Of a stretch of 64,000 nucleotides of DNA, positions 6,042 to 46,824 are shown in pieces. Numbering within the stretch: the first letter of the stretch is position 1; each line of letters starts with the position of its first letter. Made by a program: the position numbers and the translations under genes. A model generated the notes under the pieces. The model searched no databases and was not told the DNA's origin. It saw only the letters and a list, made by a program, of their open reading frames with translations. Origin of the DNA: an uncultured cyanobacterium (GTDB taxonomy: Bacteria > Cyanobacteriota > Cyanobacteriia > Cyanobacteriales > CAWUOF01); the NCBI GenBank assembly GCA_963744145.1, contig CAVUSO010000001.1, positions 3,840,001 to 3,904,000 on the forward strand, read 5' to 3'.

Positions 6042-6084
6042 TAGACAAATAGTATTTTGATTGTTGATCGGGGCAAACTGAACT

Positions 6085-7353: not shown

Positions 7354-7363
7354 GGGTCGGTAG

Positions 7364-7585: not shown

Positions 7586-7646
7586 TTTCCCAATCAGATC
7601 TAAAATTAAAGTTTCCTTTTTATTTTATTACCTAATTGGTACATTG

Positions 7647-9206: not shown

Positions 9207-9361
9207 TACCTTGATCTCCTGGCTAATTAAAAATTTATTTAGGGGCTTAGTTCATGTAAATTAAGGATTCGTTTATTTCGTATCCGTAATATCATGGTAT
9301 GCCAGGAAATGATCTGACTACTTCACCCGATGGGATGAACTGAAATATAGTAAGGTAGCAA

Positions 9362-9829: not shown

Positions 9830-9902
9830 ACAAATTTACTTAGGGTGCGTAGTATTAGTATACCACCTTTTTTTAGGTGATCAGTATAATGTTTAAAAAT
9901 GG

Positions 9903-10550: not shown

Positions 10551-10665
10551 GTTTATTGTTGCGATAAGGGCGCTGAAGCGCAACTACATACCTAAAAATA
10601 ATATATTTTCTTCTCTAACTGAACTGTATTTTATTATGGCGATCGCACCAATCTACCAACAAGCT

Positions 10666-11145: not shown

Positions 11146-11376
11146 ATTGATCGCCTTTTTTAGATTTATTATGACTTAACTTAACACTTGAAAACTTTTG
11201 ATGAAACTACCATTATCAATTATTAAGTAGTTGGACATCAATAAACTAGCGCGATCGCCAGTTAATGGGAAAGATCCACTTCCCTGATCCTTAAACTTAA
11301 TGAAACTCAAAATATTTTTGGGTCAATCTGCGTTCAGAATGGTTTGAAAGAGTAACAGTGATGACAGTAAAAATTT

Positions 11377-13348: not shown

Positions 13349-13367
13349 TCTCAGATCAATTGATCCC

Positions 13368-13402
13368 AGTCCCCCTCTTTCATCAGGGGGACTAAGGGGG
13401 AG
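13368..13402. repeat. GC-rich hairpin repeat (CCCCC..GGGGGACTAAGGGGG), possibly acting as a terminator
   Basis: agtccccct...agggggact stem downstream of acs. Confidence 0.5.
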
Positions 13403-13580
13403 CAATCAATTAACTACACCAAATCAAATCAGATTATGGACAATAGCAAAACTGTCTATGATCTAGACCCTAATGGAGAAAAAACCAGTCTAATCAGTAA
13501 ATCTATCCCTACATCTTGCGTTCGTTGAAAGAAAAAGTGATAGGGTAAAGATTAATTTTCTCCCTTTGTCAGGTTTGGCC

Positions 13581-14351
13581 ATGCAAATCAAATCCCCAAA
13601 TCATCTGTTATCAATTCAACTTCCAATTTGGATTAGTCTCGGAATAATCCTTGGATGGTCACAATTGACGCTAGCTTTACCGCAAATAACCGAGTTAAAG
13701 GAAATCAAGATTGCTCAAGATTCAACTGCTGAACCTAGTCAAAAATCTGACAGTCAAGAAGTATTTTTTGAAATGAAGGGACATAAAATTAATCAGTGCA
13801 GACAGACAGGAAATACCACGACAAGAGAATGTAGAGAGATCGGCAGTGGCTATAAAATGGGGTTAAGAATTGGTAATGAACTCTATAGTCGCGGCAAAGT
13901 TGAGAATGCAGGAGAAATTTTTTACGAATTAGTTAAACAATATCCGAAAGAATCTGAAGCTCGCTATAAATTAGCAACGATTTATTACCGTTTGGGTCAA
14001 GCTGACGAAGCAATTAAGCAGTATCAGGAAACCATTCAGCTTAACCCAGAGCATGCTAAAGCTCGGAATGATTTAGCTGTGGTGATGGCCAATCAAGGTA
14101 ATCTTGGTGACGCAATTACTCTTTGGCGTGAAGCGATTAAAATTAATAGTGACTATGCAGAAGCTTTGAGCAATTTGGGACATGGTTTGTTACAACAAGA
14201 AGAACAGCAAGATCCATCGAAGCATGATCATACAATCAGAGATGAAGCGATCGCTGATCTCAAAAAAGCCTATGATATCTTTACTAAACAAGGCAGAAAG
14301 CAACCCGCTAATACTGTAGCTGAATATTTGCAACAGTTGGGTGTTCAGTAA
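13581..14351 (+). CDS. Exported tetratricopeptide repeat protein
   Basis: Signal-peptide-like N-terminus; TPRs such as EARYKLATIYYRLGQADEAIKQYQETIQLNP. Confidence 0.85.
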   Translation: MQIKSPNHLLSIQLPIWISLGIILGWSQLTLALPQITELKEIKIAQDSTAEPSQKSDSQEVFFEMKGHKINQCRQTGNTTTRECREIGSGYKMGLRIGNELYSRGKVENAGEIFYELVKQYPKESEARYKLATIYYRLGQADEAIKQYQETIQLNPEHAKARNDLAVVMANQGNLGDAITLWREAIKINSDYAEALSNLGHGLLQQEEQQDPSKHDHTIRDEAIADLKKAYDIFTKQGRKQPANTVAEYLQQLGVQ

Positions 14352-14360
14352 CTGGTAAAA

Positions 14361-14981
14361 TTAAGTAGCCACTAGCTGATTGAGCTGCACTTCACATTGC
14401 TGGAAAATATAGTTGACAGCCGCAAACAACTTATCTATTTCCTGGATCAAGAAGCGGTTATTGTTTCTCATAAAAACCGCTTTTTCCAGTTTGCCAAACT
14501 CCCAATCTTTACCATTAGAAACGATTCCAAATATGACAATCTGTAACTGATCATTAAGTCGCTGTGCTGCGACCATTTCCGCTAGACACTGTGCCCATCC
14601 TTCGTCAAATTTGTCTTGCTTGGCTTCAACTAATAAAAAATAAGGCTGTTCAAAGACAATTTTTCCCAAAGGCGATCGCTTGGCTAAGATATACTCAGGA
14701 AAACCGGAAAGATTCTGGTCATAAGTTAAGGATTGATGACTCCACAACACAAAATTGCTGCGATAGCACTTCCAAACTTCTTTCAGAACGGGATAAATCA
14801 AGTTTTCGCAAATGGCAAATTCTGAGTTATCAACTACCCCATCTTGCATTACTGTTGCTAAATCTTCTCGGAAATAATCTGGAATCCTAAACTGAGTTTC
14901 CTTCATGAAATTAGCTTCAGTATAGACAATCTGAAACTCTTTCAAAACTGCACTAATAGTTTTGTAATTACTGAAAGCCAT
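14361..14981 (-). CDS. Conserved cyanobacterial hypothetical protein with PD-(D/E)XK-like motif
   Basis: LLVEAK..F.EGWAQCLAEMVAAQ, GIVSNGKDWEFGKL. Confidence 0.7.
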   Translation of the reverse strand: MAFSNYKTISAVLKEFQIVYTEANFMKETQFRIPDYFREDLATVMQDGVVDNSEFAICENLIYPVLKEVWKCYRSNFVLWSHQSLTYDQNLSGFPEYILAKRSPLGKIVFEQPYFLLVEAKQDKFDEGWAQCLAEMVAAQRLNDQLQIVIFGIVSNGKDWEFGKLEKAVFMRNNNRFLIQEIDKLFAAVNYIFQQCEVQLNQLVAT

Positions 14982-27319: not shown

Positions 27320-30319
27320 ATGAGAAAGTTAGTGATGCTGATTTTTGAAGAAAAGGGAGACTTGGAAAGAGTAGGTTTTTCGGTAACGTTACGACTAGGG
27401 GACGAGGGGCAAACTTTGCCTACTCAGCAAACTGGATCTTTACCGTCAAACCCGGAACTGGTTGAGTCTTACAACAGTTGGAAAGAAACTTATGATGGCT
27501 GCTTTATTAGGGTAAATGGTAGTAGATTAGAACAGCCAGCAAAACAAATAACTAACTTCTCAATTCCAGAGGTTGAGATAAAATCTGAGAATTTGAGGCA
27601 ACAATTTAATGACTGGTTACAATCGCAGCAATTGAATAATGTTAGGCAAGAATTAGTTGCCCTAGTTGCCAATTTACAAGAAAATGATGAAGTGCGGTTG
27701 ATTATCCAAACTTCAAATACACAGCTACAGAAACTTCCCTGGCATCTTTGGGATATATTGAGAGGTTGCCCTAAAGCTGAAATTAGTGTCAGTCCGCACA
27801 ATTTCAGTCCGCGGCCCAGTGTTAGAAAAAGAACATCAGCCAAATTTGCTAATAATCAAGTTAATATTTTGGCAATTTTGGGCAATGATAAGGAAATTAA
27901 TGTTGAAGAAGATCGAAGAATATTAAATTCTATTCCGGGTGCTAAAGTTAAGTTTTTAGTTAAACCCGAGCAACGAGACATCGACAATGAACTCAGGGAA
28001 AAGTCTTGGGATATTCTATTTTTTGCGGGACATAGCCGCACGGAGGGAGAAAAAGGAATCATATATATTAATTCGACTGAGAGTTTAACTATCGGTAACT
28101 TAAATTATGCGTTAGAAGAGGCAATTAGAAACGGTTTACAAATAGCAATTTTTAACTCTTGTGATAGTTTAGGGTTAGCTAAAGATTTAGCTGATTTGAA
28201 TCTCCCTCACATGATTATCATGCGAGAACAGGTTCCTGATAAAGTGGCACAGGAATTTTTGAAATATTTTCTGGGTTTTTTTTCACAGGGTCAGTCATTT
28301 TATTTAGCGGTTAAGAAAGCACGGGAAAAATTGCAGAGTTTGGAAAATCAGTTTCCCTGTGCTTCTTGGTTGCCTGTTATCTACCAAAAAAATCCTACTA
28401 AGATACCCCCTACTTGGAAAGAGTTACGGAGAATAGATAAAAAATCAGCTTTTTGTCTGAGCGCGTTATGTTTGGCAGAGGCAGCGGCAGCTTTTCTGGT
28501 ATCGGTAAGTCTTGTCCCATCTCCTGTGAATACTAATCACATTCTGATCTTAGTTTTAGGTGGATTAATCTTTGCCCAATCTCCTCCTGCGATCAAAGGC
28601 AAAAATTTACTAATTATTGCTGTAATTACTTTACCAATTATTTTTTTATGGCGGAGTTTGCAAGGTGGTTTTGGTTTGGAAATTGTGATCGGTATAGCAG
28701 CTTTAGCTGGATTAGGTGTGATCGCGATGGCATTGCATAATGTCAGGATGATTTCCCCATTTTTCAGACGAATTTTCATCGCTTTCAGCCGTCGATTCAT
28801 CCCCTGGATTAGCAACGCCTTGCGGTTTGGAGTTAGATTACAGGTTTTAGTATTGCTGAGCTTGGGCATCGCAATGTTGGATAGTAATCCTCCCTTTAAT
28901 CTTCACTTTAGTTTGGGTGACAAACCCCTTTTTTATAATGGCACGGATGTGACAGCAAAAAAGCTGCTAGATACCGGGGTGTTTGTTTATAATGGCACGG
29001 ATGTGACAGCAAAAAAGCTGCTAGGTATCTGGGAGTTTGCCCTGCTGGGAAATGGCCTGGGACATTATGAATGTGCTAGGGATGCCTTCGACAATTATCT
29101 AAAGCAAAATCCAAATGACCCAGAGGCTTTAATTTATAAGAATAATGCGATCGCCCGTCTTTCTGGTCGTCCACCTCTTCGCATTGCCGTCAGCGTTCCC
29201 ATTGGCAGTAACCCGGACGTTGCTGCTGAGATTTTACGAGGTGTTGCTCAGGCTCAGGCTCAAATTAATAATGATGCAAACGGCATTAATGGTGCCAAGT
29301 TAGAAATCAAACTTGCTGACGATCGCAACAATCGCGCCCTTGCAGCAAGTATCGCGCATACTTTTGTTCATGATCCCCAGGTTCTTGCCGTTATTGGACA
29401 CAATGCAAGTAACGCTTCTCAGGCGGCTGCTCCCATCTATAACAGGAATCACCTGGTGATGATCACTCCCACAAGCTTTGCAAGCGCAGTAACTAATAGC
29501 GACTGGCCTTATATTTTTCAAACTACTCCTACAGCTGAGAAATATACCAAAAGATTAGTCAATTATATTGTCAAAACTGATAATATTAAGAAAGCCGTAT
29601 TTTGTTTTGACTCTAACGCGCAAGATAATAACGATTTCAAAAAGGCGCTCTCTAAATCCTTAATCGAACTTGCTAACACAAGTGAATGCGATGTTAGGTC
29701 ACAATCATTCAATGCGGATGATGCAATTCAGGAAGCTAATGATAGAAATGCACAAGCCTTGATCGTCAATCCTTTTATAGACGAGATTGATAAAACCGCA
29801 AAGCTATTTAATGCCAACACCAATAACGATCCTCCCTTGCATCTGTATGGGTCGTCCACATTCAATACCTTTAAGACCTTAAGTATGGGAGCAGCAATCG
29901 AAAACCTTGTCATTCCAGTCGCATGGTATCCAGATTTTTATACAAAGACTAAGTTTGTTGAGGAGGCCACAAACCTATGGGGAACATCCTCTATCAATTG
30001 GCGTACCGCCATGAGTTATGATGCAGCCGAAGCAATCATTACAGCTTTACTGCAAATCCCATCTAGATCCGATATCAAAGACATTCGATCCGATATCAAA
30101 GAGACTCTATTAAAAAAAGACTTTTCAGTAGAAGGAGCAGAAGGGACAGCTCGACCAGTGAAATTTGATAGCAAAGGTGGCCGCAGCTGCGATCTTCCTA
30201 TTTTATTACTCCAAGTGAAACAGAAAGACCCCTCAAACCCCAAGACAGAATATGGTTTTGTACGGTTGGACGTTCCTGATCCAGAGGATAAATCGACGGT
30301 TGAATGCGATAAAAATTAG
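27320..30319 (+). CDS. CHAT (caspase-like) protease domain + TM segments + LivK-type periplasmic binding domain
   Basis: LPWHLWD, DILFFAGHS (His), IFNSCD (Cys); TM block; NPNDPEALIY, EILRGVAQAQ, VLAVIGHNAS, NWRTAMSYDA. Confidence 0.88.
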   Translation: MRKLVMLIFEEKGDLERVGFSVTLRLGDEGQTLPTQQTGSLPSNPELVESYNSWKETYDGCFIRVNGSRLEQPAKQITNFSIPEVEIKSENLRQQFNDWLQSQQLNNVRQELVALVANLQENDEVRLIIQTSNTQLQKLPWHLWDILRGCPKAEISVSPHNFSPRPSVRKRTSAKFANNQVNILAILGNDKEINVEEDRRILNSIPGAKVKFLVKPEQRDIDNELREKSWDILFFAGHSRTEGEKGIIYINSTESLTIGNLNYALEEAIRNGLQIAIFNSCDSLGLAKDLADLNLPHMIIMREQVPDKVAQEFLKYFLGFFSQGQSFYLAVKKAREKLQSLENQFPCASWLPVIYQKNPTKIPPTWKELRRIDKKSAFCLSALCLAEAAAAFLVSVSLVPSPVNTNHILILVLGGLIFAQSPPAIKGKNLLIIAVITLPIIFLWRSLQGGFGLEIVIGIAALAGLGVIAMALHNVRMISPFFRRIFIAFSRRFIPWISNALRFGVRLQVLVLLSLGIAMLDSNPPFNLHFSLGDKPLFYNGTDVTAKKLLDTGVFVYNGTDVTAKKLLGIWEFALLGNGLGHYECARDAFDNYLKQNPNDPEALIYKNNAIARLSGRPPLRIAVSVPIGSNPDVAAEILRGVAQAQAQINNDANGINGAKLEIKLADDRNNRALAASIAHTFVHDPQVLAVIGHNASNASQAAAPIYNRNHLVMITPTSFASAVTNSDWPYIFQTTPTAEKYTKRLVNYIVKTDNIKKAVFCFDSNAQDNNDFKKALSKSLIELANTSECDVRSQSFNADDAIQEANDRNAQALIVNPFIDEIDKTAKLFNANTNNDPPLHLYGSSTFNTFKTLSMGAAIENLVIPVAWYPDFYTKTKFVEEATNLWGTSSINWRTAMSYDAAEAIITALLQIPSRSDIKDIRSDIKETLLKKDFSVEGAEGTARPVKFDSKGGRSCDLPILLLQVKQKDPSNPKTEYGFVRLDVPDPEDKSTVECDKN
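28729..28819 (+). mobile_element. 91-bp MITE-like element (left end of a composite cassette), translated in frame within the CHAT gene
   Basis: Terminal inverted repeats GGCATTGC...GCAACGCC; 76/91 ungapped identity to the reverse complement of 30269-30359. Confidence 0.8.
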
Positions 30320-30998
30320 TCCGAAAAATTGGAAAATCATACTGCCATTATGCAACGCCCTATTTCGACGTATTTACAATTCTCTGTCTCAGCAAAATAA
30401 AACTACAGTTTTAATCTTATCTTTATTAATTCCAGCAGGGTTTTGCATCTGGTGGTTTATGCCGCCTGATAGTTGGTGGTTTATGTCGCCTGATAGTTTT
30501 GCGAAAGTGTCCAATGTTCCCTCCGGATCTTTTTTTTATGGAGGAAGTACCGCTTGGGCACCAATTAGTCACGTTGTAAATTCTGTGATTGAAAATATAT
30601 GGCCTCAGTTTAAATTGAGTTATAAACAACCTAATACTGACGCTCCTGAATCAAGTACTGGGATTAAAATGCTTTTAGATAATCAGTTAGCATTTTCTCA
30701 GTCTTCTCGCCCTGTGAAAGATGAAGAATATAAAGCTGCTAAACACAAGGTATTTACCCTCAAAGAAGTAACGATCACTATTGATGGAATAGCGTTTATA
30801 GTTAAACCGAATTTAAATATTACTGGTTTAAATTTAGCTCAGATTAAAGATATTTATACTGGCAAAATTACCAACTGGAGTCAAGTCGGCGGTCCGAACC
30901 AAACAATTATCCCTTACTCTCTTCATAGTGGAAGTGAAACCATAGATTTTTTGATAGAAAACATTTTAAAAAACGAGAAGCTGGGCGAGCAGGTTTGA
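30252..30998 (+). pseudogene. Truncated PstS-like (PBP2) binding domain with TM anchor; probable displaced C-terminus of the CHAT gene
   Basis: FAKVSNVPSGSFFYGGSTAWAP, FSQSSRP, IYTGKITNWSQVGGP; stops part-way through the domain. Confidence 0.75.
30269..30359 (-). mobile_element. 91-bp MITE-like element (right end of the composite cassette)
   Basis: Inverted copy of 28729-28819, ending in GCAACGCC. Confidence 0.8.
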
Positions 30999-31018
30999 TC
31001 GCTTAACATGAAACAAAA

Positions 31019-31309
31019 ATAAGCGCATCTTTTCTGGAACTTTCTAACTACCAAGTAGAAGCTTCAACACAATAAGAAGCTATCGAAAAATTGAACGAAA
31101 TCTTACATATTCGTTTGGAAAAACTAGAGATTATTCCAGTAGAAATTGAATGGCAACCCGCTCAAAAACCGGAGAATCCTTGGGTAAAATTTGCAGGCGT
31201 TTTTCAAGACAATCCCGACTTCACTGAGATTGCAGAAAGTCTTAGAAAAGAGCGTTTAGCTAACGATGATGCAATTAGCGATCGCCACTTTCACGCCCAA
31301 ATAATATAA
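31019..31309 (+). pseudogene. HicB-like antitoxin remnant
   Basis: LELSNYQVEASTQ*EAIEKL...NPWVKFAGVFQDNPDF with an in-frame TAA at 31073. Confidence 0.6.
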
Positions 31310-31318
31310 GGAAATGAA

Positions 31319-32284
31319 TTAAATTGACAAAAGTTCAAGAGAACGCAAAAATTGGCAAATCTGCCTCGCCACATCGATCGCAACCGCCCGCTGTGCCTCG
31401 CGTGTACCCGAACCCAAATGCGGACTCAAATGCAACTTATTACTCCTCCTAGCAAACTCTATCAAAGGTGAATCCTTTGGTAAAGGTTCATTAACAAAAA
31501 CATCCAAAGCAGCACCCGCAATTCGATTAGATTCCAACGCCTTCAACAAATCTGCCTCATTCACAATTCCACCGCGAGCACAATTGATAATAAAAGCAGT
31601 TGGTTTCATCGTATCTATAGCTGCTGCATTAATTAAATTCCTCGTTTCCTCTGTCAAAGGAATGTGTAAAGTAATAATATCAGATTTTTTCAGCAGTTCA
31701 TCTAAACTCGATAAAGTATAACCCCTTTCGCTAGCTAAATTCGCTACCTTTTCAGGATTACGATTGTAAGCGATAATCTCCATTCCAAACGCTTGCGCTC
31801 TTTCTGCCACCTTTTGACCGATATTGCCTAACCCAATAATTCCCAGGGTTTTTCCATAAAGTTCTGTTCCCCATGAACTGCGAGGACCATTCCAGTTTCC
31901 ATTTAATAGTTCTTCTTGTGGCGCGATAATAGGTCGAGCTAAATCTAACATCAGACAGAAAACTAATTCAGCCGTAGCAATACCATTAGCATTAGAATTA
32001 AACACCCTAATCCCTAACCGTTCGGCAGTTTCAAGATCAACATTATCTGTCCCTGTCTGCGCCAATCCTATAACTCGCAATCTTCCGCTCCTTCCCCTCT
32101 CCAACACGGTTGCATTGTTTAAATGATCTATCCCCGATCGCAAAACCACAGCATCACATTGAGGAATTTCTTCTAAAAGTTCTTCCAAGGACAAACCAAT
32201 CCTTATCTCTACTACGGCAAACTTTTCTAACTCGGTAATCCCCTCTGGGTGGATTTCGCTGATGACCAAAACTTTTTTCTGCAT
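31319..32284 (-). CDS. D-2-hydroxyacid dehydrogenase (SerA-like, no ACT domain)
   Basis: GTELYGKTLGIIGLGNIG, INCARGG, AALDVFVNEP, SPHLGSGTREAQ. Confidence 0.88.
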   Translation of the reverse strand: MQKKVLVISEIHPEGITELEKFAVVEIRIGLSLEELLEEIPQCDAVVLRSGIDHLNNATVLERGRSGRLRVIGLAQTGTDNVDLETAERLGIRVFNSNANGIATAELVFCLMLDLARPIIAPQEELLNGNWNGPRSSWGTELYGKTLGIIGLGNIGQKVAERAQAFGMEIIAYNRNPEKVANLASERGYTLSSLDELLKKSDIITLHIPLTEETRNLINAAAIDTMKPTAFIINCARGGIVNEADLLKALESNRIAGAALDVFVNEPLPKDSPLIEFARRSNKLHLSPHLGSGTREAQRAVAIDVARQICQFLRSLELLSI

Positions 32285-32434
32285 AACCTGATTAAAAATT
32301 CTGAGAATAGGTAAAGACACTAAACACTATTAGATAAAACTCGCTTAAGAGGCTGGGACTGATTATAGCATTAATTGCTTCCAAGATGATTTTGAAACTG
32401 AAGTAATGCGTTTTGAGATGTTTTGACAATGCCT

Positions 32435-32710
32435 CTAATTTTCATGACACTGTTTTTCTTTTAATTTTGGTTTTGGTTGGATAACAGATTGGTTGCTATT
32501 GGATGGGGAAAGGTCGATTTTACGTTCTGTCGGTTGAGTTAGTTTTGCCATAAATACAGCAATAGCAACGATAATAAAGATGGCAAATAATCCTAGCTGA
32601 GGTTGAGAGAAATCTTTTCTAAAATCGCAGGACAAACATTGATAAACATCTTGGCTGTGTTGGACTAGGCTTTTTTTACCAAAATTGGGACATTCTGATG
32701 ATTTTGACAT
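32435..32710 (-). CDS. Small membrane protein with degenerate Zn-ribbon (CPNF...CLSC)
   Basis: Zn-ribbon-like N-terminus and one TM segment. Confidence 0.5.
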   Translation of the reverse strand: MSKSSECPNFGKKSLVQHSQDVYQCLSCDFRKDFSQPQLGLFAIFIIVAIAVFMAKLTQPTERKIDLSPSNSNQSVIQPKPKLKEKQCHEN

Positions 32711-33062
32711 AAGTTGATATTTTCCTAATTTGCTGTTGAGGTTTTTTGTACTAAACACTAATTACTTTTTTTGAGGCGGTAGATAATTAGGGTTTTAAGA
32801 AGGTTTTGACTGCCATTAGGTACAAGAACTCGAAAAAAAATATCCAAAAACTTGGTATTTTTTAATTAACTTCTGCCTACCATTTACTACCTACCACCTT
32901 CCTTCTATGAAAAGGGATTTTTCGTTTGATTTTTCTGTGAGCGATTAATCCTAGTTTTTTAAGTTAAAAACCAGAAAAGTAGATAGATACAGAATTTCAA
33001 ACTCTTACCCTGTGAGAGTTTGTGTTTGCGCGTGAGTTGAATTCATACCTTGACTCAAACTC

Positions 33063-33266
33063 CTAATCCCGTTCAAAAGACAAGGGTTCATGGTGTGTTC
33101 GATTGTAGTCTGCTAAACAGTGATAGATTTCGATAAACATAGACTGAAAATCATTAAGCTCGTCATCTTCCATACGGTTCCCCTGGAGTTCAAGTTTTTG
33201 TCTAATGATTTGAGCCTCTAAGATAATAGAATAAACGATGTAGGCTGCTTTTGTTTTGCTTAACAT
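33063..33266 (-). CDS. Small hypothetical protein
   Basis: ATG preceded by an AAGGGAG ribosome-binding-like sequence; divergent from the ankyrin gene. Confidence 0.55.
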   Translation of the reverse strand: MLSKTKAAYIVYSIILEAQIIRQKLELQGNRMEDDELNDFQSMFIEIYHCLADYNRTHHEPLSFERD

Positions 33267-33462
33267 TGAAATCTCCCTTTAAGTTAAGAATTTAAAACTG
33301 AACCACATTTGATAAGAAAATGATAACGCATTAGATTTGGTTTGAATTGCTCATTTTTTATTCAGTTTACTGAAAATTCAGTTTACTGAATTTTTTTAAC
33401 GAATATTTAGAAAACTGAAAATGATCTTCTTGAGTAATGCGATGCTATAATAAGGAACGTAA

Positions 33463-34899
33463 ATGCTTGTATGGAAGGAAATTATTATGTCTTGGGTCGA
33501 AAAATTTAATGAGTCGCATATTAAAGCCTTTTATATAACCTTGAAAGGTATGCCCAAAATAGTATTGAATGAGTGGAGCCAAGCAAGAAATATGGATGAC
33601 TTGAGGGAACGGGTATCAGAAAAGGTAAAGAAAAATATGAAAGAGGAAACTATCAACCAGCACAAGACAACAATTAAAGAAAAACTCAATGATTACATTA
33701 AAAAATATTTGCTGACCGAAGAAGAAAGGTCAGAAGTAGAACAAGTAAAAAGTGAAGTTAGAAAAAACAGAAGAAGAACAAATTTAATCCTGAACACACC
33801 AACAGAGCTACTTGGGTTTATTGGTAAGTATCAATCAGTGTTTAATGCTCTTAGAGAAGGAGATCCTGGTTGTCTAACTCCATCTATCACATACGAACTA
33901 CATATAATCATTAAATCTACGTTGACAATTGTAGAGAAAATTAGTTTTCTAAGCAGACTAATTGAGACAAATCCAGAGATTATTAATCAAACCGATGAGG
34001 ACGGATGCACGCCACTCTTTACTGCTGTGGCAATGAATCAACCAGAAATTGTCGATTTTTTAGTAGGACAAGAAAATATTAAAATAGATATATCTAATTA
34101 TTACGGATGGACACCATTTCATAAAGCGGCGAATATCGGTTCTCTAGAAATAGCTCAAATATTGGTAGAATCTGGAACGATGATAGATAGACTTACTCGA
34201 ATGAATGCAAATGCTGTTTATGAAGCGGCTTACGGTTGTGATGACATAAATGTAGTTAAATATCTTGTAGAAAAACAGGGATTAGATATCAATATATCTA
34301 CCATAGATCAATTTACACCTCTGACTACAGCTATCTGGCGACAAAATTATCAAATTGCTAAATATTTAATTGAATCAGATAGACTAACAAGCATTAATGT
34401 CAGAGATATTAGAGATGAGAATGCTCTTTATAAAGCTATTTCACAAGGATGTTTTGATTTGGCTCAAATTCTTCACGAAAAAGGTGCAGAGTTCCATCGT
34501 CCTAGACTTTTATCATCCCGATCTATCACTAATGTAAATCCTCAAAAAACTTCATTTTTTGAAGCTGTGGAAAGAGATGATTTTAGGACAGCCAAGCAAC
34601 TTATTGAAGGAGAAACTGATCAAAACAAAAAAGAGCAAATGGTTAATCAAGTGAAACACCCTTATCAGCGAACATTATTATCTATTGCCGCCCAAAATGG
34701 CAATCAAGACTTGGTTAAACTTTTAGTTGAAAACGGAGCAAATGTATTCGCTAGAAATAATCATGGCAGAACACCTAAAGAGATGGTATTAATCCCAAAT
34801 AATGAAGAAGTTTACAGGTATTTAGACGAACAAGAACAGATCGTGAACCCCAATCCCAGTGAAGATGAACTTCGCCATCGCTATGGTGAGGCAACATAA
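33463..34899 (+). CDS. Ankyrin-repeat protein with putative N-terminal HTH-like domain
   Basis: GCTPLFTAV, GWTPFHKAA, FTPLTTAI, RTLLSIAAQNG, GANVFARNNHGRTP. Confidence 0.88.
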   Translation: MLVWKEIIMSWVEKFNESHIKAFYITLKGMPKIVLNEWSQARNMDDLRERVSEKVKKNMKEETINQHKTTIKEKLNDYIKKYLLTEEERSEVEQVKSEVRKNRRRTNLILNTPTELLGFIGKYQSVFNALREGDPGCLTPSITYELHIIIKSTLTIVEKISFLSRLIETNPEIINQTDEDGCTPLFTAVAMNQPEIVDFLVGQENIKIDISNYYGWTPFHKAANIGSLEIAQILVESGTMIDRLTRMNANAVYEAAYGCDDINVVKYLVEKQGLDINISTIDQFTPLTTAIWRQNYQIAKYLIESDRLTSINVRDIRDENALYKAISQGCFDLAQILHEKGAEFHRPRLLSSRSITNVNPQKTSFFEAVERDDFRTAKQLIEGETDQNKKEQMVNQVKHPYQRTLLSIAAQNGNQDLVKLLVENGANVFARNNHGRTPKEMVLIPNNEEVYRYLDEQEQIVNPNPSEDELRHRYGEAT

Positions 34900-35287
34900 T
34901 ATTTAAAGCTGATAAGTACCTGAAATAAAAATAAACGGTGCTATGTGACGAAATGTTAAGCGCCGGACACTCTTGATATTGCTTTACTTTGATGGTAATG
35001 ACATAGTGCAGTTTATGTCTGTCTGACTACTTAGCTCTCTTTTATAATTTTGGATGGAAACATTGATTTTTTTCAGGGCTGCAACAAATAACAAAAGAGA
35101 GTTTTATCTTTTTTATAAAACTGAAAAATTTTACTGCATATTTTTCAATTTTATAAACTTTTATTATTTTCAACAATTTTCGAGATAACTTTCAGCGAAA
35201 TGGATTTTTCCAAAAGCAAAAAATATGCTATAAAGGTATTGGGAAATATTTTTTGTACGCAATCAGTCATAATTTATTGGACTAAAT

Positions 35288-37126
35288 ATGAACAATTATA
35301 TGGTAAAGATTAACCGTAAGTCGGAGAGTTACAAAAAGGAAATTATTGTTTCAGGTGCACAAATAATTTTGAATATTTTGGGGCAAAAAGGTATTAAGCA
35401 TATTTTTGGCGTTCCGGGTAGAGAGTCAGAAGGAATTTTATTTAACGAATATCAAGATATCAACCTAGTTTTAACAGCTGTCGAAAATACTGCTGGATTT
35501 GCGGCTTATGCTTACACTCAAGTTACAGGGAAAACTCAGGTAGTATTTACTACTATTGGACCTGGTGTAGCAAATATGGCTAATGTCATCTACTCAACTT
35601 GTAGCGATCGTATTCCTGTGATCTTTATTTGTGTACAGGTAGAAACAGATAGAATTTTCCATAACCATACACATCAGTGTATAGACGCTGTAGCAATGTA
35701 TCGTCCTATTACTAAGTATGCTCATGAAATCGCAAATGTTGAGGAGATAAAAAATTGTTTGGAAACTGCTTTTGAGAAAACGCAAGAAGAACCTAAAGGA
35801 CCTGCACTCATTAGTGTTCCTATTGATATGCTCAAAGCTAAAATAGACCTTTTAAAAGCGCAGAAAAAAGTAGTATTAATAAGACCAATTCAAGGCAATA
35901 ATCGCCCGTCATCTATGCCAAATATGGATATAAAAAAAATTCAAAATGTAAAAGGTATTCCAGAATACATCCAAAGCTCTAATTACACTGCTCAAAAATT
36001 AATTGATATCAACAAAGCAGCCAAACTAATATCTAGTTGTCAACAACCTTTGTTATATGTAGCCAATGAAATAATTCGCTCAAATTCTGTCGATGAAGTA
36101 CAAGAGCTTTGTAATGAGTATAATATTCCGGCAATATTTGCATACGATACTAAGGGAGTTTTACCGAGTAATCACGAACTTAATTACTTTACTTGTAGTA
36201 GCTACGCTGAAGGAATATTAGGACTTAATCCTAATAGATATATTTTTCCAAAAGAAGTAGATTGTATAGTATCACTTGGTTATGATTACAAAGATGATGT
36301 ATTTCCCGAAAAGCATTTTAGATATGGAGAAGGGGGAAACCATAGATTACTAATTAATTTATCTGGTTTTATGCCCGATAAAATTGTTACAGAATTTGAC
36401 TTTCATATCAATGGAAATATAAACACTAACTTAAGGGAGCTTTTGAAATGTTTAAAGCAAAAACCAGCTAAGTTTAATCCTCCTTATAATATTAGCCCAT
36501 TGAGAGAGGCTATGAGCCAGAAGATAAAATCTACTAATTTAGAGACACCACCAGGAAAAATCAATATTGTTGAGGTAATCAAAAGCATTAATAAGCATTC
36601 AGCCGTTTTGGTTTCTGATGTTGGTACTTTCAGACATTACGCTGTGTTATTCAGCGAGATTTTAAAACCAAATTACTTCCTAACATCTGCTGGTAGTTCA
36701 TCTTTTGGTACAGGATTACCTTTCGGATTCGGGGCGGCTCTTGCTCATAAAAATGAGAAGATTATTGTCTTGGCTGGGGATGGTGGATTTAATTCTAGCA
36801 TAGGAGATTTAAGAACACTGAAAAAGTATAATACGGATATAGTGATTATTGTTCTGAATAACAATAAGAATGGTTTAATCAATATCTACCAGCAAAAGGG
36901 GCACAATGGTAAAATTAATAAAGATGCAGTAGATCACTCTAATGCCGATTTTGTAGCAATTGCAAAAGGATATGGATGTGAAGGTGCAAGAGTTTGTTGT
37001 TCCTATGAACTCGATTGTGCTATTAAAGATGCTTTTGATAAGGGTGGACCTTGGGTGATTGAAGTCCCTATTTATTACCCTGAAGAAGATATTAAAAGAT
37101 TAACCTGTAGCCAGAATTTAGGTTGA
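35288..37126 (+). CDS. ceaS: ThDP-dependent enzyme, N2-(2-carboxyethyl)arginine synthase (CeaS)-like
   Basis: GDGG..NN ThDP motif plus motifs I recall from Streptomyces CeaS: FGVPGRE..ILF.E, THQCID, HELNY, GYDY, FRHY.VLF, FLTSAG.SSFG, NGLI..YQ..GH. Confidence 0.8.
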   Translation: MNNYMVKINRKSESYKKEIIVSGAQIILNILGQKGIKHIFGVPGRESEGILFNEYQDINLVLTAVENTAGFAAYAYTQVTGKTQVVFTTIGPGVANMANVIYSTCSDRIPVIFICVQVETDRIFHNHTHQCIDAVAMYRPITKYAHEIANVEEIKNCLETAFEKTQEEPKGPALISVPIDMLKAKIDLLKAQKKVVLIRPIQGNNRPSSMPNMDIKKIQNVKGIPEYIQSSNYTAQKLIDINKAAKLISSCQQPLLYVANEIIRSNSVDEVQELCNEYNIPAIFAYDTKGVLPSNHELNYFTCSSYAEGILGLNPNRYIFPKEVDCIVSLGYDYKDDVFPEKHFRYGEGGNHRLLINLSGFMPDKIVTEFDFHINGNINTNLRELLKCLKQKPAKFNPPYNISPLREAMSQKIKSTNLETPPGKINIVEVIKSINKHSAVLVSDVGTFRHYAVLFSEILKPNYFLTSAGSSSFGTGLPFGFGAALAHKNEKIIVLAGDGGFNSSIGDLRTLKKYNTDIVIIVLNNNKNGLINIYQQKGHNGKINKDAVDHSNADFVAIAKGYGCEGARVCCSYELDCAIKDAFDKGGPWVIEVPIYYPEEDIKRLTCSQNLG

Positions 37127-37195
37127 TAGGTTAATCTAATATGAGATTGATCCGGATCTCGATACTGTTGGCGAAATATTTCTTAACACTAGGAC

Positions 37196-37414
37196 TAATA
37201 CCAATTCTCTAAATGCCGACTACAGATAGGGCCTCTAATATATAGGCTCGTCCCGTCTTTTCCTGAACCAGTTTTTTCCACTACGAGCAATTTCTTCAGC
37301 TCGGCATCACTTTCCTTGATGTCTAGGTGATAAACTCCTGCCATATTTTTCCTTCAACTCTACTCAAATTATACTCTACACTATCTGTAGTCGGAATTAC
37401 AAGAATTGGGATAA
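37196..37414 (-). mobile_element. Internally deleted IS630-family element with both terminal inverted repeats
   Basis: 34-bp imperfect IRs sharing CCAATTCT and CCGACTACAGATAG; encodes transposase N-terminus MAGVYHLDIKESDAELKKLL from 37343. Confidence 0.75.
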
Positions 37415-37514
37415 CAGCTCAACTCAGATTAAGTGCAATTTCATAGGCTATTGGGATGAACTGGATTGAGTTAGAATAAAATATCTAATATTAAATCAAA
37501 CTTAAATAAAATCT

Positions 37515-38450
37515 ATGCCAATCCAACCACCGTCTTCCACTATTTCCCCAACTGAACTACCACTACAACCACTACTACCAACCATGTATGATCTCCCTAG
37601 TGAGGACCCGGAGGAACCTGGTTTGCCCGATGAATTTCATTCGTTACAACCCCCATTACTGAGTCATACAATTCGTTTACAGGATTATCCCAAAGAGCGA
37701 ATTTTTACCGGCTCTGATTTAAACATCTATTACGATGTCAATCACACTCTTTGGCACAAACGTCCCGACTGGTTTCTGGTAATTGATGTACCCAGACTCT
37801 ATGAAGGTAGAGATTTACGTGATAGTTATGTAATCTGGCAAGAAAAAGTCAATCCGGTAGTGGTGATTGAATTACTATCTCCTGGAACGGAAAAAGAAGA
37901 CCTAGGAGAAAGAGCAGAAAGGGAGGAAGAAGAGGGTGAAAATGGTCAAGAAATACGGAGAGAAAATCTACCCCAAAAAGCTGAAATTCCACCGACCAAG
38001 TGGGAAGTTTATGAACAGATTTTACAAATACCTTATTATCTAGTATATAGTCGTCGTCGCGATCGGCTACGTCTATTTAAGTTAGAGAAAGGTAGATATC
38101 AAGAACAAGCATTAAACCCAACACAACAAGGATTTTGGCTGACAGATTTAAAAATTGGGATCGGGATCTGGTTAGGGGAATATGAAGGAATAAATCGACC
38201 CTGGTTACGCTGGTATGATGAAACTGGGAATTGGTTACCGACAGCAACAGAATTAGCCCATCAAGCTGAAATTCGGATTGAACAAATTAGCATCGAAGTG
38301 AACCAAGCTAAAATTGAAATTGAACGAGCTCACTCTGAGGTTAAACAAGAACGACAAAAACGGCAAGAATTATTACAAAAATTAAGTACCCTATCTCCTG
38401 AACAGCTCATTGCTTTAGGAATTAATCTAGGAGATTTTCACGACCAATAA
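37515..38450 (+). CDS. Uma2-family endonuclease (DUF820)
   Basis: LPTMYDLPSEDPEEPGLPDEFH, RPDWF, VIELLSPGT. Confidence 0.92.
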   Translation: MPIQPPSSTISPTELPLQPLLPTMYDLPSEDPEEPGLPDEFHSLQPPLLSHTIRLQDYPKERIFTGSDLNIYYDVNHTLWHKRPDWFLVIDVPRLYEGRDLRDSYVIWQEKVNPVVVIELLSPGTEKEDLGERAEREEEEGENGQEIRRENLPQKAEIPPTKWEVYEQILQIPYYLVYSRRRDRLRLFKLEKGRYQEQALNPTQQGFWLTDLKIGIGIWLGEYEGINRPWLRWYDETGNWLPTATELAHQAEIRIEQISIEVNQAKIEIERAHSEVKQERQKRQELLQKLSTLSPEQLIALGINLGDFHDQ

Positions 38451-38586
38451 ATTGTAAATTATTTTCACGCCGATCGTCAAACCTACTCAGCAAGAAAACA
38501 AATCTTTAGCTGAAGCTTAAAGTTGCGTCTTGTTCGGGTTGATCTATAATTTTGTAGAGACGATGCCCGCGCACTTTTCTACAAAA

Positions 38587-38934
38587 TTAAATCTGGCTCA
38601 TAACTTCAGACTTTAACTGAGATGGAGATAAATCTTTCTCATTAATAAATTCATTAAATAGTTCAAAAAATCTATCCAGTGCATCTCTTTCATCTTCGGA
38701 ATAAAATAGAATTATTCGACTCCAATGTTGAGTAGAAGATTGATTAAATTTGCTTTCAATCCACTCCTGAAACTGCTCAAATTCTTGTTCTTCTTGACTA
38801 ACAGGAATATTAACTTGACGTAAAGCAAAAGTATAACCATCTAAAAAGGTCTGAAATTGACTAAGAGCAGCTTTCCCTAAATATAAAGCTGGTCTTTGTT
38901 TAATTTTATCAATCAATTCGTAAAAGCTAATCAT
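38587..38934 (-). CDS. Hypothetical protein (possible orphan immunity protein)
   Basis: IKQRPALYLG...FQEWI...WSRIILF...ALDRFFELF family pattern. Confidence 0.65.
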   Translation of the reverse strand: MISFYELIDKIKQRPALYLGKAALSQFQTFLDGYTFALRQVNIPVSQEEQEFEQFQEWIESKFNQSSTQHWSRIILFYSEDERDALDRFFELFNEFINEKDLSPSQLKSEVMSQI

Positions 38935-38952
38935 AATTTTACCTCAATTGTT

Positions 38953-39161
38953 AGAACATGGGAGTGCCTAGTTTTTCTAATTGAGAGCGAATTGTTCCAA
39001 ATGCCATTGTTGCCGAATCATTAAAGGGCAAAGATATAAATTGAGATAGAGTATAGGTTGTTATTAGCTGTAGTCAGACTTTGAGCAAGCACTTGGATAA
39101 TATGCAGCTTTTGGGTGAGTGAAAGCTGCATGAGATGTACGTCAAGCTCTTGGATTAGCAT
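38953..39161 (-). pseudogene. Fused remnants of a VapB-like antitoxin and a VapC PIN toxin
   Basis: MLIQELDVHLMQLSLTQKLHIIQVLAQSL followed in another frame by LPFNDSATMAFGTIRSQLEKLGTP. Confidence 0.55.
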
Positions 39162-39162
39162 A

Positions 39163-39541
39163 TTGACACTCCCACGCCCAAAGGCAGTGGGATTCTTGAA
39201 TCAACGACCGCACTTAACCAACCCCAATTGCTTAGAATTAGCCAGAGGTGCAATCTCATCAAGCGTAGAAATTCCGCCGTGCCCCGGCGTATTTTTTACT
39301 AACAACATTTTGATTAGTTGTAGATTATCAATGGGCAATCGGATCGTTAGATCCTAAAATTACGCCGTGCGACGCTTGCCGCAATTTTCAGCGTTGCCAT
39401 CGATTGATATTAATAAGCGCGTATTTTCTTAGGAAAATACGCGCTTATTAATAGAATTTAATAATTTTTACGGCTCCTAAGCCAACAGCTGTCCGATTCA
39501 TCCCGACCCCTGAAAGGGGTGGGCTTTCTCGGTAACTACTT
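39163..39541 (-). mobile_element. Non-autonomous IS200/IS605-derived element with no tnpA or tnpB ORF
   Basis: TTAC immediately 5' of the left end; left-end hairpin CCCACCCCTTTCAGGGGTCGGG; right-end hairpin CCCACTGCCTTTGGGCGTGGG followed by AGTGTCAA terminus. Confidence 0.8.
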
Positions 39542-39567
39542 GTAAGTGCCTTACTAGCGAACGTGAC

Positions 39568-39597
39568 TGTAGGGGCGTATGGCCATACGCCCCTACA
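39568..39597. repeat. Perfect REP-like palindrome TGTAGGGGCGTATGGCCATACGCCCCTACA
   Basis: Seen directly; GTAGGGGCG arm recurs at 56392. Confidence 0.85.
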
Positions 39598-39606
39598 TGG
39601 ACATAT

Positions 39607-39897
39607 TTATTCTTCATTTAAAATTTTCGGAACTTGGAAATAATCACCGTCAGGTGCTGGTGCATTATTCAGAATCCCTGCTCGATCAGGATAAGGTTGC
39701 AGCAAATCTGGTCTAGTGATATTACTCAGATCGATCGCTCTAGTAGTGGGTTCGACATTTTCTGTATCTAATTCACTTAACTGAGTAAAATATTCCAAAA
39801 TACTACCCAGTTGGTCAGTAAATTGTTTTTCTTCTTCCGAAGTCAAATGTAACCGGGCCAGATGAGCGACTTTACGAACTTGATCAATTTCCAACAT
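39607..39897 (-). CDS. gatC: Asp/Glu-tRNA amidotransferase subunit C
   Basis: VRKVAHLARL, LDTENVEPT, YFQVPKI. Confidence 0.96.
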   Translation of the reverse strand: MLEIDQVRKVAHLARLHLTSEEEKQFTDQLGSILEYFTQLSELDTENVEPTTRAIDLSNITRPDLLQPYPDRAGILNNAPAPDGDYFQVPKILNEE

Positions 39898-39965
39898 CAG
39901 AATTTTCAGTAAAGTTGATTAATTGTTGCCAAGGATGAGGGGCTGAAAATTTTGCCCCTATCTAA

Positions 39966-40487
39966 TTAGAAAAACACATCTGCCGTTGAGCGTCCAGTAG
40001 TTTTGAGCCAATTTTGAGCTTCAATGTAATTGTTGGGTGCTAACCGGATCGCTCGCATCCAGTAATCCGCAGCTTGACCATACATCGATTCTGCTTCTTC
40101 GGCTTGCCCTTCGGCTGTGAATTTATCACCTTGAAAGTGATAGATTACAGCAATATTATTGAGAGCTTGGGGCATTCGCGGATTAAGCTCGATCGCTTGG
40201 TGATAGTATTCGAGGGCTTGAGCATGGTCACCATTACTGGTATGGATTAACCCAATATTATAAAGGATATAGCTCCGATCATTAGGATCTTCCTCTAGGG
40301 TTAAAGCTTCATAATAGTTTTCTAGGGCTTCAGCATATTCACCCTCTGCTTGAGCAGACATTCCATCTCTATAGTAGACAAAAGCTTCTTTGGCTTTTTT
40401 GTTAGCAGGCAGAATTTTGAGCAGAATATCTGCCATTACGGTAAAGCTTTTGTCAATAAAGTTATCGTTACGTTGAGTTCTTGGCAT
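39966..40487 (-). CDS. ycf3: Photosystem I assembly protein Ycf3
   Basis: [27 protein letters not shown]. Confidence 0.98.
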
Positions 40488-40563
40488 AGGGAGACGCGAT
40501 AGTCGAACCGAGGGTTTAAACTGATCTACCTAACTTTACCGTCAATTGGTAAGTTTACCGCAC

Positions 40564-40581
40564 TATGTTAAGTAATGTAAC
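40564..40581 (-). promoter_or_regulatory. HLR1-like (RpaB) site GTTACATT-AC-TTAACATA
   Basis: One mismatch to the (G/T)TTACA(T/A)(T/A)-N2 direct-repeat consensus, in the ycf3/ycf46 divergent region. Confidence 0.55.
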
Positions 40582-40609
40582 AATATTGCCATCAAAGAGG
40601 TTTAGCATC

Positions 40610-40638
40610 TTGACATCCAGAAGAAAAGACTCTATGGT
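40610..40638 (+). promoter_or_regulatory. Sigma70-type promoter TTGACA-N17-TATGGT
   Basis: Perfect -35 with 17-bp spacing, about 35 bp upstream of 40674. Confidence 0.6.
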
Positions 40639-40673
40639 AAAAGTCATACCCGGGTAAGCCAATTCAGAGTCAT

Positions 40674-41018
40674 ATGCAAGATAAGCAAAAAGTTACGTTA
40701 TATCTGCCGCCAGAACTGCATCGCCGACTCAAAATCCGAGCTGCGGTTGACTCAGAACCAATGTCTGTCATTGCCGAACGTGCGCTGAACTTCTATATGG
40801 AACATCCAGAAATAGTAGATGAAGCGAACACCGAGTACGGTAGAACCCATCGGGTTTACAATTGTCCGGAATGCGAAAGTGCAGTGGTAATGCGAGACGG
40901 AGAAATAGTTTCTCTAAGACATCAGCCTAGTGTTTTAGCCCAGACAGAGGGGCTTCCTGTAGAAAAAGTACATTCGAGTACGGATCAACAGGGAGAGGAA
41001 GCCTTAGTTCCTTGCTAA
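40674..41018 (+). CDS. Conserved RHH-like / CxxC protein upstream of ycf46
   Basis: KQKVTLYLPPELHRRLKIRAAV, VYNCPEC. Confidence 0.8.
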   Translation: MQDKQKVTLYLPPELHRRLKIRAAVDSEPMSVIAERALNFYMEHPEIVDEANTEYGRTHRVYNCPECESAVVMRDGEIVSLRHQPSVLAQTEGLPVEKVHSSTDQQGEEALVPC

Positions 41019-41125
41019 AGTTTCGACCCTTGTAAAAAAGCGATCGCGCTTATGTGTTCAGCACTAAAGGCTGGGGGCATAAAGATCAGGCAAAGTTTGC
41101 ACCCGTTCTAATTAGGTTAATGGTC

Positions 41126-46005: not shown

Positions 46006-46824
46006 ATGGTCCAAAGTCTTGACCCTACTATATTACCCCCTCCTTTTCCCGATCATACCCAATTACCTGAATCCGACGGCACCTTCGTGAAAAACTTTCA
46101 AGAACATCCCCAATGTATCTTGCTGACTGACTCTTTGGAAACTACACTGCAAAATCTTCATCCAGATGGTCAATATGCGATCGGACAAGATAGTGGGATT
46201 TATTGGAGAGAAACAGATCCTCCGGAACGGGGAGCGGAAGCACCGGATTGGTTCTATGTTCCTAACGTTCCACCCCTATTAGACGGTCAAGTTCGTCGTT
46301 CTTATGTATTATGGCGCGAATATAGTGTGCCCTTAATTGCGATCGAATTAGCGAGTGGAAATGGTGCAGAAGAACGAGACAATACTCCCCTATCTCGTTC
46401 TTCTGAAAGGAGCAATCAGAAACCCGGTAAGTTTTGGGTATATGAGCAGATTATTCGGATTCCTTACTATGCCATATATATCATCAAAACCAGGGAATTA
46501 GAAGTTTATAACTGGGTGAATATTCACTATCACCGTTTGCAACCAAATGAGCGCGGACATTACCCGATTGATCGGATGGGAGTAGAATTAGGTGTGTGGG
46601 AAGGTAGCTATCAAAATCAGACTAATCACTGGTTACGTTGGTGGGATAGTCAAGGTAATCTGTTGCTCACTGGTAGTGAACAGGCTAAACTGGAACGTCT
46701 TCATACTGAACAGGAACGTCAACGGGCTGATGCTGAAACAGTACGGGCTGATCGAGAACAGCAACAGAAAGAACGATTAGCTGCTTATTTGCGATCGCAA
46801 GGAATCGATCCGGATTTAATTTGA
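46006..46824 (+). CDS. Uma2-family endonuclease (DUF820)
   Basis: PDHTQLPESDGTFVKNFQEHPQ, APDWFYVP. Confidence 0.92.
   Translation: MVQSLDPTILPPPFPDHTQLPESDGTFVKNFQEHPQCILLTDSLETTLQNLHPDGQYAIGQDSGIYWRETDPPERGAEAPDWFYVPNVPPLLDGQVRRSYVLWREYSVPLIAIELASGNGAEERDNTPLSRSSERSNQKPGKFWVYEQIIRIPYYAIYIIKTRELEVYNWVNIHYHRLQPNERGHYPIDRMGVELGVWEGSYQNQTNHWLRWWDSQGNLLLTGSEQAKLERLHTEQERQRADAETVRADREQQQKERLAAYLRSQGIDPDLI

Follow-up and report, generated by a model that had tools for sequence, protein, structure and literature searches.

A CeaS-like thiamine diphosphate-dependent enzyme beside a gene of an HTH-ankyrin family in a cyanobacterium without recognisable clavam partner genes

Introduction

Carboxyethylarginine synthase (CeaS, also written CEAS; EC 2.5.1.66) of Streptomyces clavuligerus, whose structure has been solved (PDB 1UPA, 2IHT, 2IHU and 2IHV, the last in complex with 5-guanidinovalerate), has a three-domain fold that depends on thiamine diphosphate (ThDP), and true CeaS genes are followed by Bls, encoding beta-lactam synthetase, and Pah, with OAT nearby, as seen in Saccharothrix (L003) and on S. 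clavuligerus pSCL4. Here we describe a gene for a protein of the same fold (P0001), together with the ankyrin-repeat gene upstream of it (product P0002), in a stretch of 64,000 nucleotides from an uncultured cyanobacterium (GenBank assembly GCA_963744145.1, contig CAVUSO010000001.1, positions 3,840,001 to 3,904,000), hereafter the window. An initial annotation had described the first of these genes as a stand-alone, horizontally acquired CeaS-like gene. The two genes are:

35288–37126, plus strand: CeaS-like ThDP-dependent enzyme P0001, 612 amino acids, identified by Pfam, structure match, residues and model
33463–34899, plus strand: ankyrin-repeat protein P0002, with a putative, divergent N-terminal LuxR/GerE-type helix-turn-helix (HTH), 478 amino acids

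Three other described systems are relevant for comparison. The acetolactate synthase (ALS) AlsS and the large subunits of acetohydroxyacid synthase (AHAS) share superfamily and domain order with P0001 and provide its next-best sequence and fold matches. LuxR/GerE regulators (PF00196) have a GerE-type HTH, as does the P0002 family, in which, however, it is N-terminal and fused to ankyrin repeats spanning about 330 residues and not to a receiver or autoinducer domain. Finally, clavaminate synthase (Cas) and the TauD-TfdA Fe(II)/2-oxoglutarate oxygenases (PF02668) resemble a component found in the Nostoc version of the module alone.

In our reading, which we hold to be somewhat the better bet, P0001 is catalytically active and works by CeaS chemistry, but apart from beta-lactam synthesis, within a regulated mobile module that makes an N-(2-carboxyethyl) amino acid. 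We found no CeaS homologues in cyanobacteria described in the literature; the 20 candidate enzymes of PMC13500476 might include one.

Results

P0001 resembles CeaS in sequence and fold

The open reading frame (ORF) of the enzyme starts with ATG, has no internal stops and encodes 612 amino acids, in which Pfam recognises the N-terminal, central and C-terminal domains of ThDP enzymes (PF02776, PF00205 and PF02775). The approximate limits within P0001 are as follows:

Residues 22–185: Pyr domain
Residues 197–231: insert
Residues 241–400: middle domain
Residues 444–598: PP domain

When all solved structures were searched with HMMER, S. clavuligerus CeaS (1upa) was the best relative of P0001 (E 5.3e-95, 322 bits), and five more PDB entries of the same enzyme matched as well, whereas the runner-up among solved proteins, a catabolic acetolactate synthase, reached 166 bits, half of the CeaS score. 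Identity to CeaS is about 33–36% over almost the entire length. The seven motifs by which the initial annotation had recognised the gene are all present in the ORF (GRESEGILFNE, THQCID, KGVLPSNHELNY, GYDY, SDVGTFRHYAVLF, FLTSAGSSSFG and NGLINIYQQKGH) and face matching stretches of CeaS in the HMMER alignment (in the same order GREAASILFDE, THQCLD, KGVLPVGHELNY, GYDY, SDIGFFRHYGVLF, FLTSAGCSSFG and NGLIELYQNIGH). The ThDP/Mg motif is also kept, D498 and N525 of P0001 corresponding to D463 and N490 of CeaS.

The AlphaFold model of P0001, built on a 48-sequence alignment, has a mean predicted local distance difference test score (pLDDT) of 91.3, with disorder confined to residues 1–9 and 197–231. 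In a Foldseek search with this model, ranks 1–10 were all taken by CeaS chains (E about 1e-57, template modelling score 0.91 to target), followed by ALS at E 1e-43. The second disordered segment is a 35-residue insert in an inter-domain linker that distinguishes P0001 from CeaS and from all other members of its clade.

These comparisons bear on the possibility that the good score against CeaS is incidental and P0001 just an ordinary ALS or AHAS, or some other carboligase or decarboxylase of the ThDP type. Its best NCBIfam names are indeed acetolactate synthase models, and its public annotation is merely ‘thiamine pyrophosphate-binding protein’. However, none of the 25 NCBIfam models shown reached its ALS/AHAS equivalog cut-off, the best scoring 267.5 bits against a cut-off of 509 and a second ALS/AHAS model 262.1 bits against 538, so that all lie at about half of the cut-off and miss it by about 250 bits or more. 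The genome already holds AHAS-type paralogues, which are 27–29% identical to P0001, and both the active-site residues and the starred branches of the trees described below part the enzyme from AHAS. We thus consider an ordinary synthase of this kind very improbable: sequence score and fold, the trees and the active-site residues all mark P0001 as CeaS-like and not AHAS-like, as the initial annotation had proposed, and neither the grouping with generic AHAS nor the loss of CeaS residues that it had named as signs to the contrary was found.

A cyanobacterial clade of CeaS-like proteins

A word-indexed search identified eleven clusters (P0004–P0014) at 47–54% identity to P0001, whose sources, where named, are Nostoc or ‘Cyanobacteria bacterium’ bins, followed by P0015 at 41% and by actinobacterial and uncultured-bacterial proteins at about 35%. 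An exhaustive search of representatives agrees, with matches of 603 and 423 bits and then none above 343 bits. CeaS-like proteins as such abound, with 500 clusters or more reaching E 1e-30 or better, and several deep clades in our trees have no known function.

We built a quick tree of 82 rows and a careful tree of 45 rows. In the quick tree the 12 cyanobacterial rows group together (support 100) and are joined by P0015 (97), this assemblage being sister to the clade of true CeaS plus P0127 with a Shimodaira–Hasegawa-like approximate likelihood ratio of 94. The careful tree likewise recovers the cyanobacterial clade (100/100), within the starred CeaS-like group, and in both trees starred branches set it far from AHAS. 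P0001 is the deepest branch within the cyanobacterial clade, beneath which lies a long private stem.

There is also a large CeaS-like clade (P0018–P0033, P0128, P0133, P0135 and P0144) whose members, where named, belong to Patescibacteria or Levybacteria. These proteins keep R36, E57, T80, H120 and Q121 in CeaS numbering and carry H, R, S or Y in place of D301; they are a separate uncharacterised branch of the same chemistry.

Active-site residues of CeaS are kept in P0001

For residue numbering we used P0130 as a ruler, a protein of 573 residues close to the crystallised CeaS (1054 bits, residues 1–573 on 1–573), in which P8, E10, D260, D301, D424 and T492 are found as numbered in PMC13500476, and residues were compared across the 82-row alignment. 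According to that paper, the enolate–ThDP intermediate of CEAS is held by E57, H120, R36, T80 and Q121, mutagenesis showed E57 and H120 to be essential, and, in a statement on a single mutant, D301S in a CeaS relative almost abolished condensation with L-arginine. All six of these residues (R36, E57, T80, H120, Q121 and D301) are kept in P0001. The correspondences, including two further positions, are:

P0001 R45, E66, T89, H129, Q130, D337, R449 and H450
CeaS R36, E57, T80, H120, Q121, D301, R414 and H415

Beyond the six, the two proteins are identical at N117, T119, C122, Y271, Y296, D297, Y298, D409, R414, H415, D463, N490 and Y561 (CeaS numbering), whereas the AHAS rows instead carry G or E at 36, F120, E122, R297, R301, Q414 and M415. 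The six-residue signature is complete in the following numbers of rows:

Cyanobacterial clade: 11 of 12
Actinobacterial CeaS: 3 of 3
Other CeaS-like proteins: 16 of 51
AHAS-type outgroups and own-genome paralogues: 0 of 16

P0001 retains every residue for forming the enolate and for losing phosphate, and we considered whether it might run the same elimination chemistry with no amine acceptor, acryloyl-ThDP being hydrolysed so that triose phosphate ends up as acrylate or a different small electrophile. CeaS and its relatives release acrylic acid from D-glyceraldehyde-3-phosphate and dihydroxyacetone phosphate in vitro, as stated in PMC13500476, and several positions near I496, the residue tabulated at the carbanion-protonating position (PMC13327070), are unlike CeaS; the changes in P0001 are T492K, E497N, F412T, Y440T, N501Q, I502K and H505G. 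Nonetheless, the D301 equivalent is kept in 11 of the 12 members of the cyanobacterial clade, which would go unexplained if no amine were bound, and PMC13500476 names the toxicity of acrylate to microbial hosts as a problem still to be overcome. Hydrolysis with no amine acceptor therefore seems to us quite improbable, and we favour transfer to an amino acid.

The clavam partners of CeaS are missing from the locus

The observation of the initial annotation that Bls, Pah and Cas are not recognisable nearby was borne out: Pfam detects no Asn_synthase, arginase or TauD family among 19 ORFs of the window, and no tblastn match to a TauD remnant was found in the window at 1e-3. Furthermore, none of the six cyanobacterial loci compared (the window, L001, L002, L013, L014 and L022) has an Asn_synthase or arginase neighbour. 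We then searched the organism's own 7.7-Mb genome with Bls and Pah from Saccharothrix and with an oxygenase from Nostoc (see below), and the best matches were weak, generic and far from the locus (Bls, 25% over 270 amino acids, E 3e-8; Pah, 27%, E 1e-8; oxygenase, 28%, E 2e-9). This search, which the initial annotation had suggested, thus revealed no beta-lactam synthetase, Pah or close Cas homologue, and in this respect P0001 differs from CeaS, whose Saccharothrix and pSCL4 loci have such neighbours; OAT is likewise lacking at the P0001 locus and in its genome. A weak TauD-family gene is present at G000:C1:1962068 (L012).

An all-against-all comparison of the six loci identified just two shared neighbours, namely the ankyrin gene, common to the window and L001, and a membrane hypothetical, common to the close kin L002 and L014. 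L002, from a Richelia bin, has its CeaS-like gene, within the interval 4885–14848, amid an ABC exporter, a secreted hypothetical and a divergent FAD monooxygenase, with the membrane hypothetical and a methyltransferase also close by; it may represent a small biosynthetic cluster arranged unlike the window. In L022 (G571:C60) the CeaS-like gene is preceded, at a distance of 90 bp, by an aspartate 1-decarboxylase (PanD) gene with the same orientation (10340–10801, minus strand), a pairing that is perhaps not due to chance because both enzymes make beta-alanine-type carboxyethyl-amine units. The enzyme copy of this genome (P0013 type) stands alone in the clade in having Q in place of both D301 and H415.

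The PanD pairing, together with the at least 500 CeaS-like clusters and their deep clades of no known function, would fit a conjugate addition of the CeaS type that uses a different donor or a nucleophile other than an amino acid and yields a product class not yet described. Against this, P0001 keeps R36, T80 and Q121, the residues by which CeaS holds the enolate derived from triose; this favours the same donor, and no neighbour other than the ankyrin gene is conserved across loci, so that we rate this alternative as unlikely.

An oxygenase joins the module in Nostoc

In three Nostoc strains (Nostoc sp. DSM 114167, NMS9 and ChiSLP03a) the enzyme, a TauD-family oxygenase and the ankyrin protein are adjacent, as judged from consecutive accession numbers. 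The oxygenase, of 264 amino acids, lies between the enzyme and the ankyrin gene; H105, H246, R256 and R260 are invariant in its small family, and it weakly matches clavaminate synthases 1 and 3 in the PDB (E 6e-4 and 1e-3). In G571 an oxygenase with 48% identity is located on a different contig from the enzyme. In the three Nostoc strains the oxygenase probably further oxidises the product of the enzyme. The resemblance to Cas is nevertheless remote, and the gene is absent from the window locus.

This oxygenase is one hint that P0001 could carry out the first step of a complete clavam-type pathway whose other genes lie elsewhere or have diverged beyond recognition, and G690 additionally encodes, on another contig, a 500-amino-acid Asn-synthase-type protein that is 31% identical to Bls. 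The latter gene, however, sits amid a methyltransferase, RecJ and a UvrD helicase, and the weakness of the own-genome matches and the lack of Asn_synthase or arginase neighbours at all six loci make a hidden clavam pathway a very remote prospect.

An HTH-ankyrin family accompanies the enzyme

The description of the enzyme as stand-alone holds with respect to the clavam partners, and yet requires amendment, given a conserved ankyrin partner upstream, on which the initial annotation is silent, and, in the three Nostoc strains, the oxygenase. P0002 is 44% identical over 330 amino acids to the product of the ankyrin gene at the Nostoc NMS9 locus, and aligned relatives suggest that its real start may be M9, at 33487. 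Its family is tiny: among 5.8 billion proteins, five further clusters were found at 190–257 bits, the next match scoring 136 bits. Pfam identifies a GerE HTH in four of the five database relatives and in the NMS9 protein P0124, and P0002 aligns across this HTH, with L27, L35, T63, H67 and I71 invariant, the last three of which are recognition-helix positions in the family. We found no description of the HTH-ankyrin architecture, no literature search having been aimed at it.

The three Nostoc copies are more than 90% alike and were counted as one lineage. In a third, divergent lineage, the enzyme P0014 and the ankyrin protein P0275 agree in source, in number of contigs and in the length of the longest contig (7496 bases), and are probably linked. 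The ankyrin family therefore accompanies the enzyme in at least two divergent lineages, and probably in three.

Upstream of both genes, the window contains repeats that could serve in regulation:

33360–33391, unstranded: two tandem perfect 15-nucleotide palindromes ATTCAGTTTACTGAA, 72–103 nucleotides upstream of the ankyrin ORF
33406–33421, plus strand: box TTTAGAAAACTGAAAA in the ankyrin promoter, with a core AAACTGAAAA that recurs in the enzyme promoter
35112–35157, unstranded: 18-nucleotide inverted repeat, 94% complementary, with a 10-nucleotide spacer and containing AAACTGAAAA, 131–176 nucleotides upstream of the enzyme ATG

The ATTCAGTTTACTGAA tandem palindromes represent a candidate operator, and none of 100 shuffles reached four matches. 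The core AAACTGAAAA occurs three times in the window against 0.6 expected, a count reached by 4 of 100 shuffles, and the inverted repeat that holds it is likewise a candidate operator, nothing more. A promoter scan of 32700–37600 was uninformative (8 promoter-like sites against 20.7 in shuffles), and a terminator scan of the same interval found none. P0002 is a putative regulator that most likely controls transcription of the module. A role in defence was also considered, as the ankyrin part of P0002 matches the PADLOC candidate PDC-M72A (E 5e-24); we take this to be repeat likeness, and PADLOC gives no defence match for the enzyme.

The module is patchily distributed and lies in an atypical stretch

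At a presence threshold of E 1e-80 or better, the enzyme gene was found in none of 400 other genomes sampled across the phylum, in one of 400 sampled across the order (G571), and, with the NMS9 copy as query, in none of 126 other genomes of the genus Nostoc; further carriers that came from pattern scans are Nostoc NMS9, a bin of Richelia and two contigs from metagenomes. Among 49 PLSDB plasmid records matching at E 1e-40 or better, most of which are from Streptomyces and Rhizobium, a tally of organisms revealed no cyanobacterial plasmid. Because the distribution is so patchy, horizontal spread is its simplest account. Four runs from three studies yielded contigs that span the two module genes at 90–100% likeness, the best of which may come from the source sample itself; the locus is therefore no oddity of assembly, and close relatives carry it. 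The mapped runs consist of DNA contigs, and no RNA run was listed for 33400–37200.

The surroundings of the module are unusual in composition, and a repeated element ends nearby:

31279–41039, unstranded: stretch of 9.76 kb free of HIP1, containing the two-gene module
37256–37415, unstranded: solo terminal part, about 160 bp, of a repeated element of about 1.19 kb, just downstream of the enzyme gene

HIP1 (GCGATCGC) occurs at 1.01 per kb in the genome and 63 times in the window, and about 10 copies would be expected from the genome mean in the 9.76-kb gap, in which there are none; the earlier remark that the enzyme gene lacks HIP1 therefore extends well beyond it. The HIP1-free stretch exceeds the two low-GC genes and takes in GatC and a Ycf3-like tetratricopeptide repeat gene. 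G+C content is lowest (0.32–0.35) at 33–37 kb of the window. The enzyme gene itself, called AT-rich in the initial annotation, has a G+C content of 0.341 against 0.394 for the genome, a direction that stands, with the proviso that the difference is modest and makes it only a 5th-percentile outlier among 3159 ORFs of at least 250 amino acids; at third codon positions its value is 0.248 (16th percentile), and the ankyrin gene, at 0.345, lies at the 6.5th percentile.

The repeated element has inverted repeat arms at 37198–37229 and 37381–37412 and is represented elsewhere in the genome by at least 12 longer copies, about 90% identical, a 231-bp query giving 27 blastn matches, and contig depth rises at 37256–37415 in mapped runs. 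It is probably an insertion sequence, of which 37256–37415 would be a remnant. The low G+C content, the HIP1-free gap, the element end downstream and the long stem of the clade together support horizontal spread among cyanobacteria. Horizontal acquisition as proposed at the outset is thus upheld by the patchy distribution, with the correction that the traffic would be among cyanobacteria and, given the long stem, not a recent gift from Streptomyces or other actinomycetes. The sole genome of the same family, G403 (850 contigs, 70–78% DNA identity), matches the window at 28–30.9 and 39.6–44 kb and has no match between 30.9 and 39.6 kb; it is too fragmented and distant to define the borders of an insertion.

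Other features of the window

A putative 67-amino-acid ORF of no family (33063–33266, minus strand) occupies part of the 700-bp gap that precedes the ankyrin gene. Two Uma2-family genes, sharing 27% identity, lie at 37515–38450 and 46006–46824; in L001 and L022, too, the CeaS-like gene has Uma2 genes on its flanks, which is unsurprising because this family is very common in cyanobacteria. A 999-amino-acid protein with a CHAT protease-like domain and a periplasmic ligand-binding domain is encoded at 27320–30319, preceded by a DUF1822 gene and by a gene for a 512-amino-acid protein of no Pfam family, whose N-terminus repeats MADLIERFSTFQ. Rfam has no match in 30000–41000.

Discussion

The favoured account would run as follows. 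D-glyceraldehyde-3-phosphate would add to the ThDP ylide, the resulting enol intermediate would lose phosphate to give acryloyl-ThDP, the amino group of L-arginine or another amino acid would add to the beta-carbon, and hydrolysis would free an N-(2-carboxyethyl) amino acid, the type of product that the initial annotation had suggested. The enzyme and the HTH-ankyrin protein would constitute a small accessory module passed horizontally among cyanobacteria, with the latter most likely controlling its transcription. In the organism studied here the carboxyethyl amino acid could be the end product or be processed by unlinked enzymes, and in the Nostoc strains the TauD/Cas-family oxygenase would contribute a single oxidative tailoring reaction. 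Tool results underlie the family placement, the residues, the genomic context and the distribution; we infer the substrates, the product and the regulatory role.

Several points weigh against this account. In the careful tree the cyanobacterial clade, the true-CeaS clade, a clade of uncultured bacteria (8 rows) and P0137 form a polytomy (82/85), so that of the proposed phylogenetic placement the separation from AHAS stands, while sisterhood to true CeaS was obtained in the quick tree only and the careful tree does not establish orthology with CeaS. The six-residue signature, being present also in 16 of 51 other uncharacterised CeaS-like proteins, marks the CeaS-like group and not CeaS alone, and does not define CeaS activity. 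Near the active site, E497, found in all three CeaS rows, is replaced by N, G or T in 12 of 12 cyanobacterial rows and T492 by K in 10 of 12, while F412 is replaced by T, and Y440 by T in 8 of 12; these changes cluster beside I496, with one negative charge lost and one positive charge gained, which makes arginine doubtful as the acceptor, and the acceptor may thus be another compound. As to the partner, Pfam reports no GerE hit in P0002 itself, the ankyrin gene is missing from four of the six cyanobacterial loci, and it is absent from two genomes that bear the enzyme, G690 and G571. Because of the polytomy and the occurrence of the signature in other proteins, the statement that P0001 works like CeaS is better founded than the statement that it is a CeaS.

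More tentatively, the module, consisting of a CeaS-type enzyme, an undescribed HTH-ankyrin regulator and, in Nostoc, a Cas-family oxygenase, might make new N-carboxyethylated amino acids that in Nostoc are also oxidised, a proposal that we regard as possible and rather speculative. If it is true, the products could resemble opines or clavam precursors, with a use in signalling, in antagonism or in the trading of nitrogen, the ankyrin domain would respond to the product or to a cue from a partner, and this would be the first natural role of CeaS chemistry outside beta-lactam synthesis.

CeaS relatives are under engineering for acrylate production, as described in PMC13500476, and divergent natural variants such as those of cyanobacteria widen the toolbox for this purpose. 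The HTH-ankyrin family, which has very few members, represents an architecture rarely seen in bacterial regulators. Our analysis also points to a cyanobacterial metabolite that would be easy to look for, since this requires one enzyme, cheap substrates and liquid chromatography–mass spectrometry. Finally, as the catalytic residues of CeaS are kept in another phylum, without the pathway and beside a conserved partner of their own, it seems reasonable to conclude that nature puts the reaction to at least one further use.

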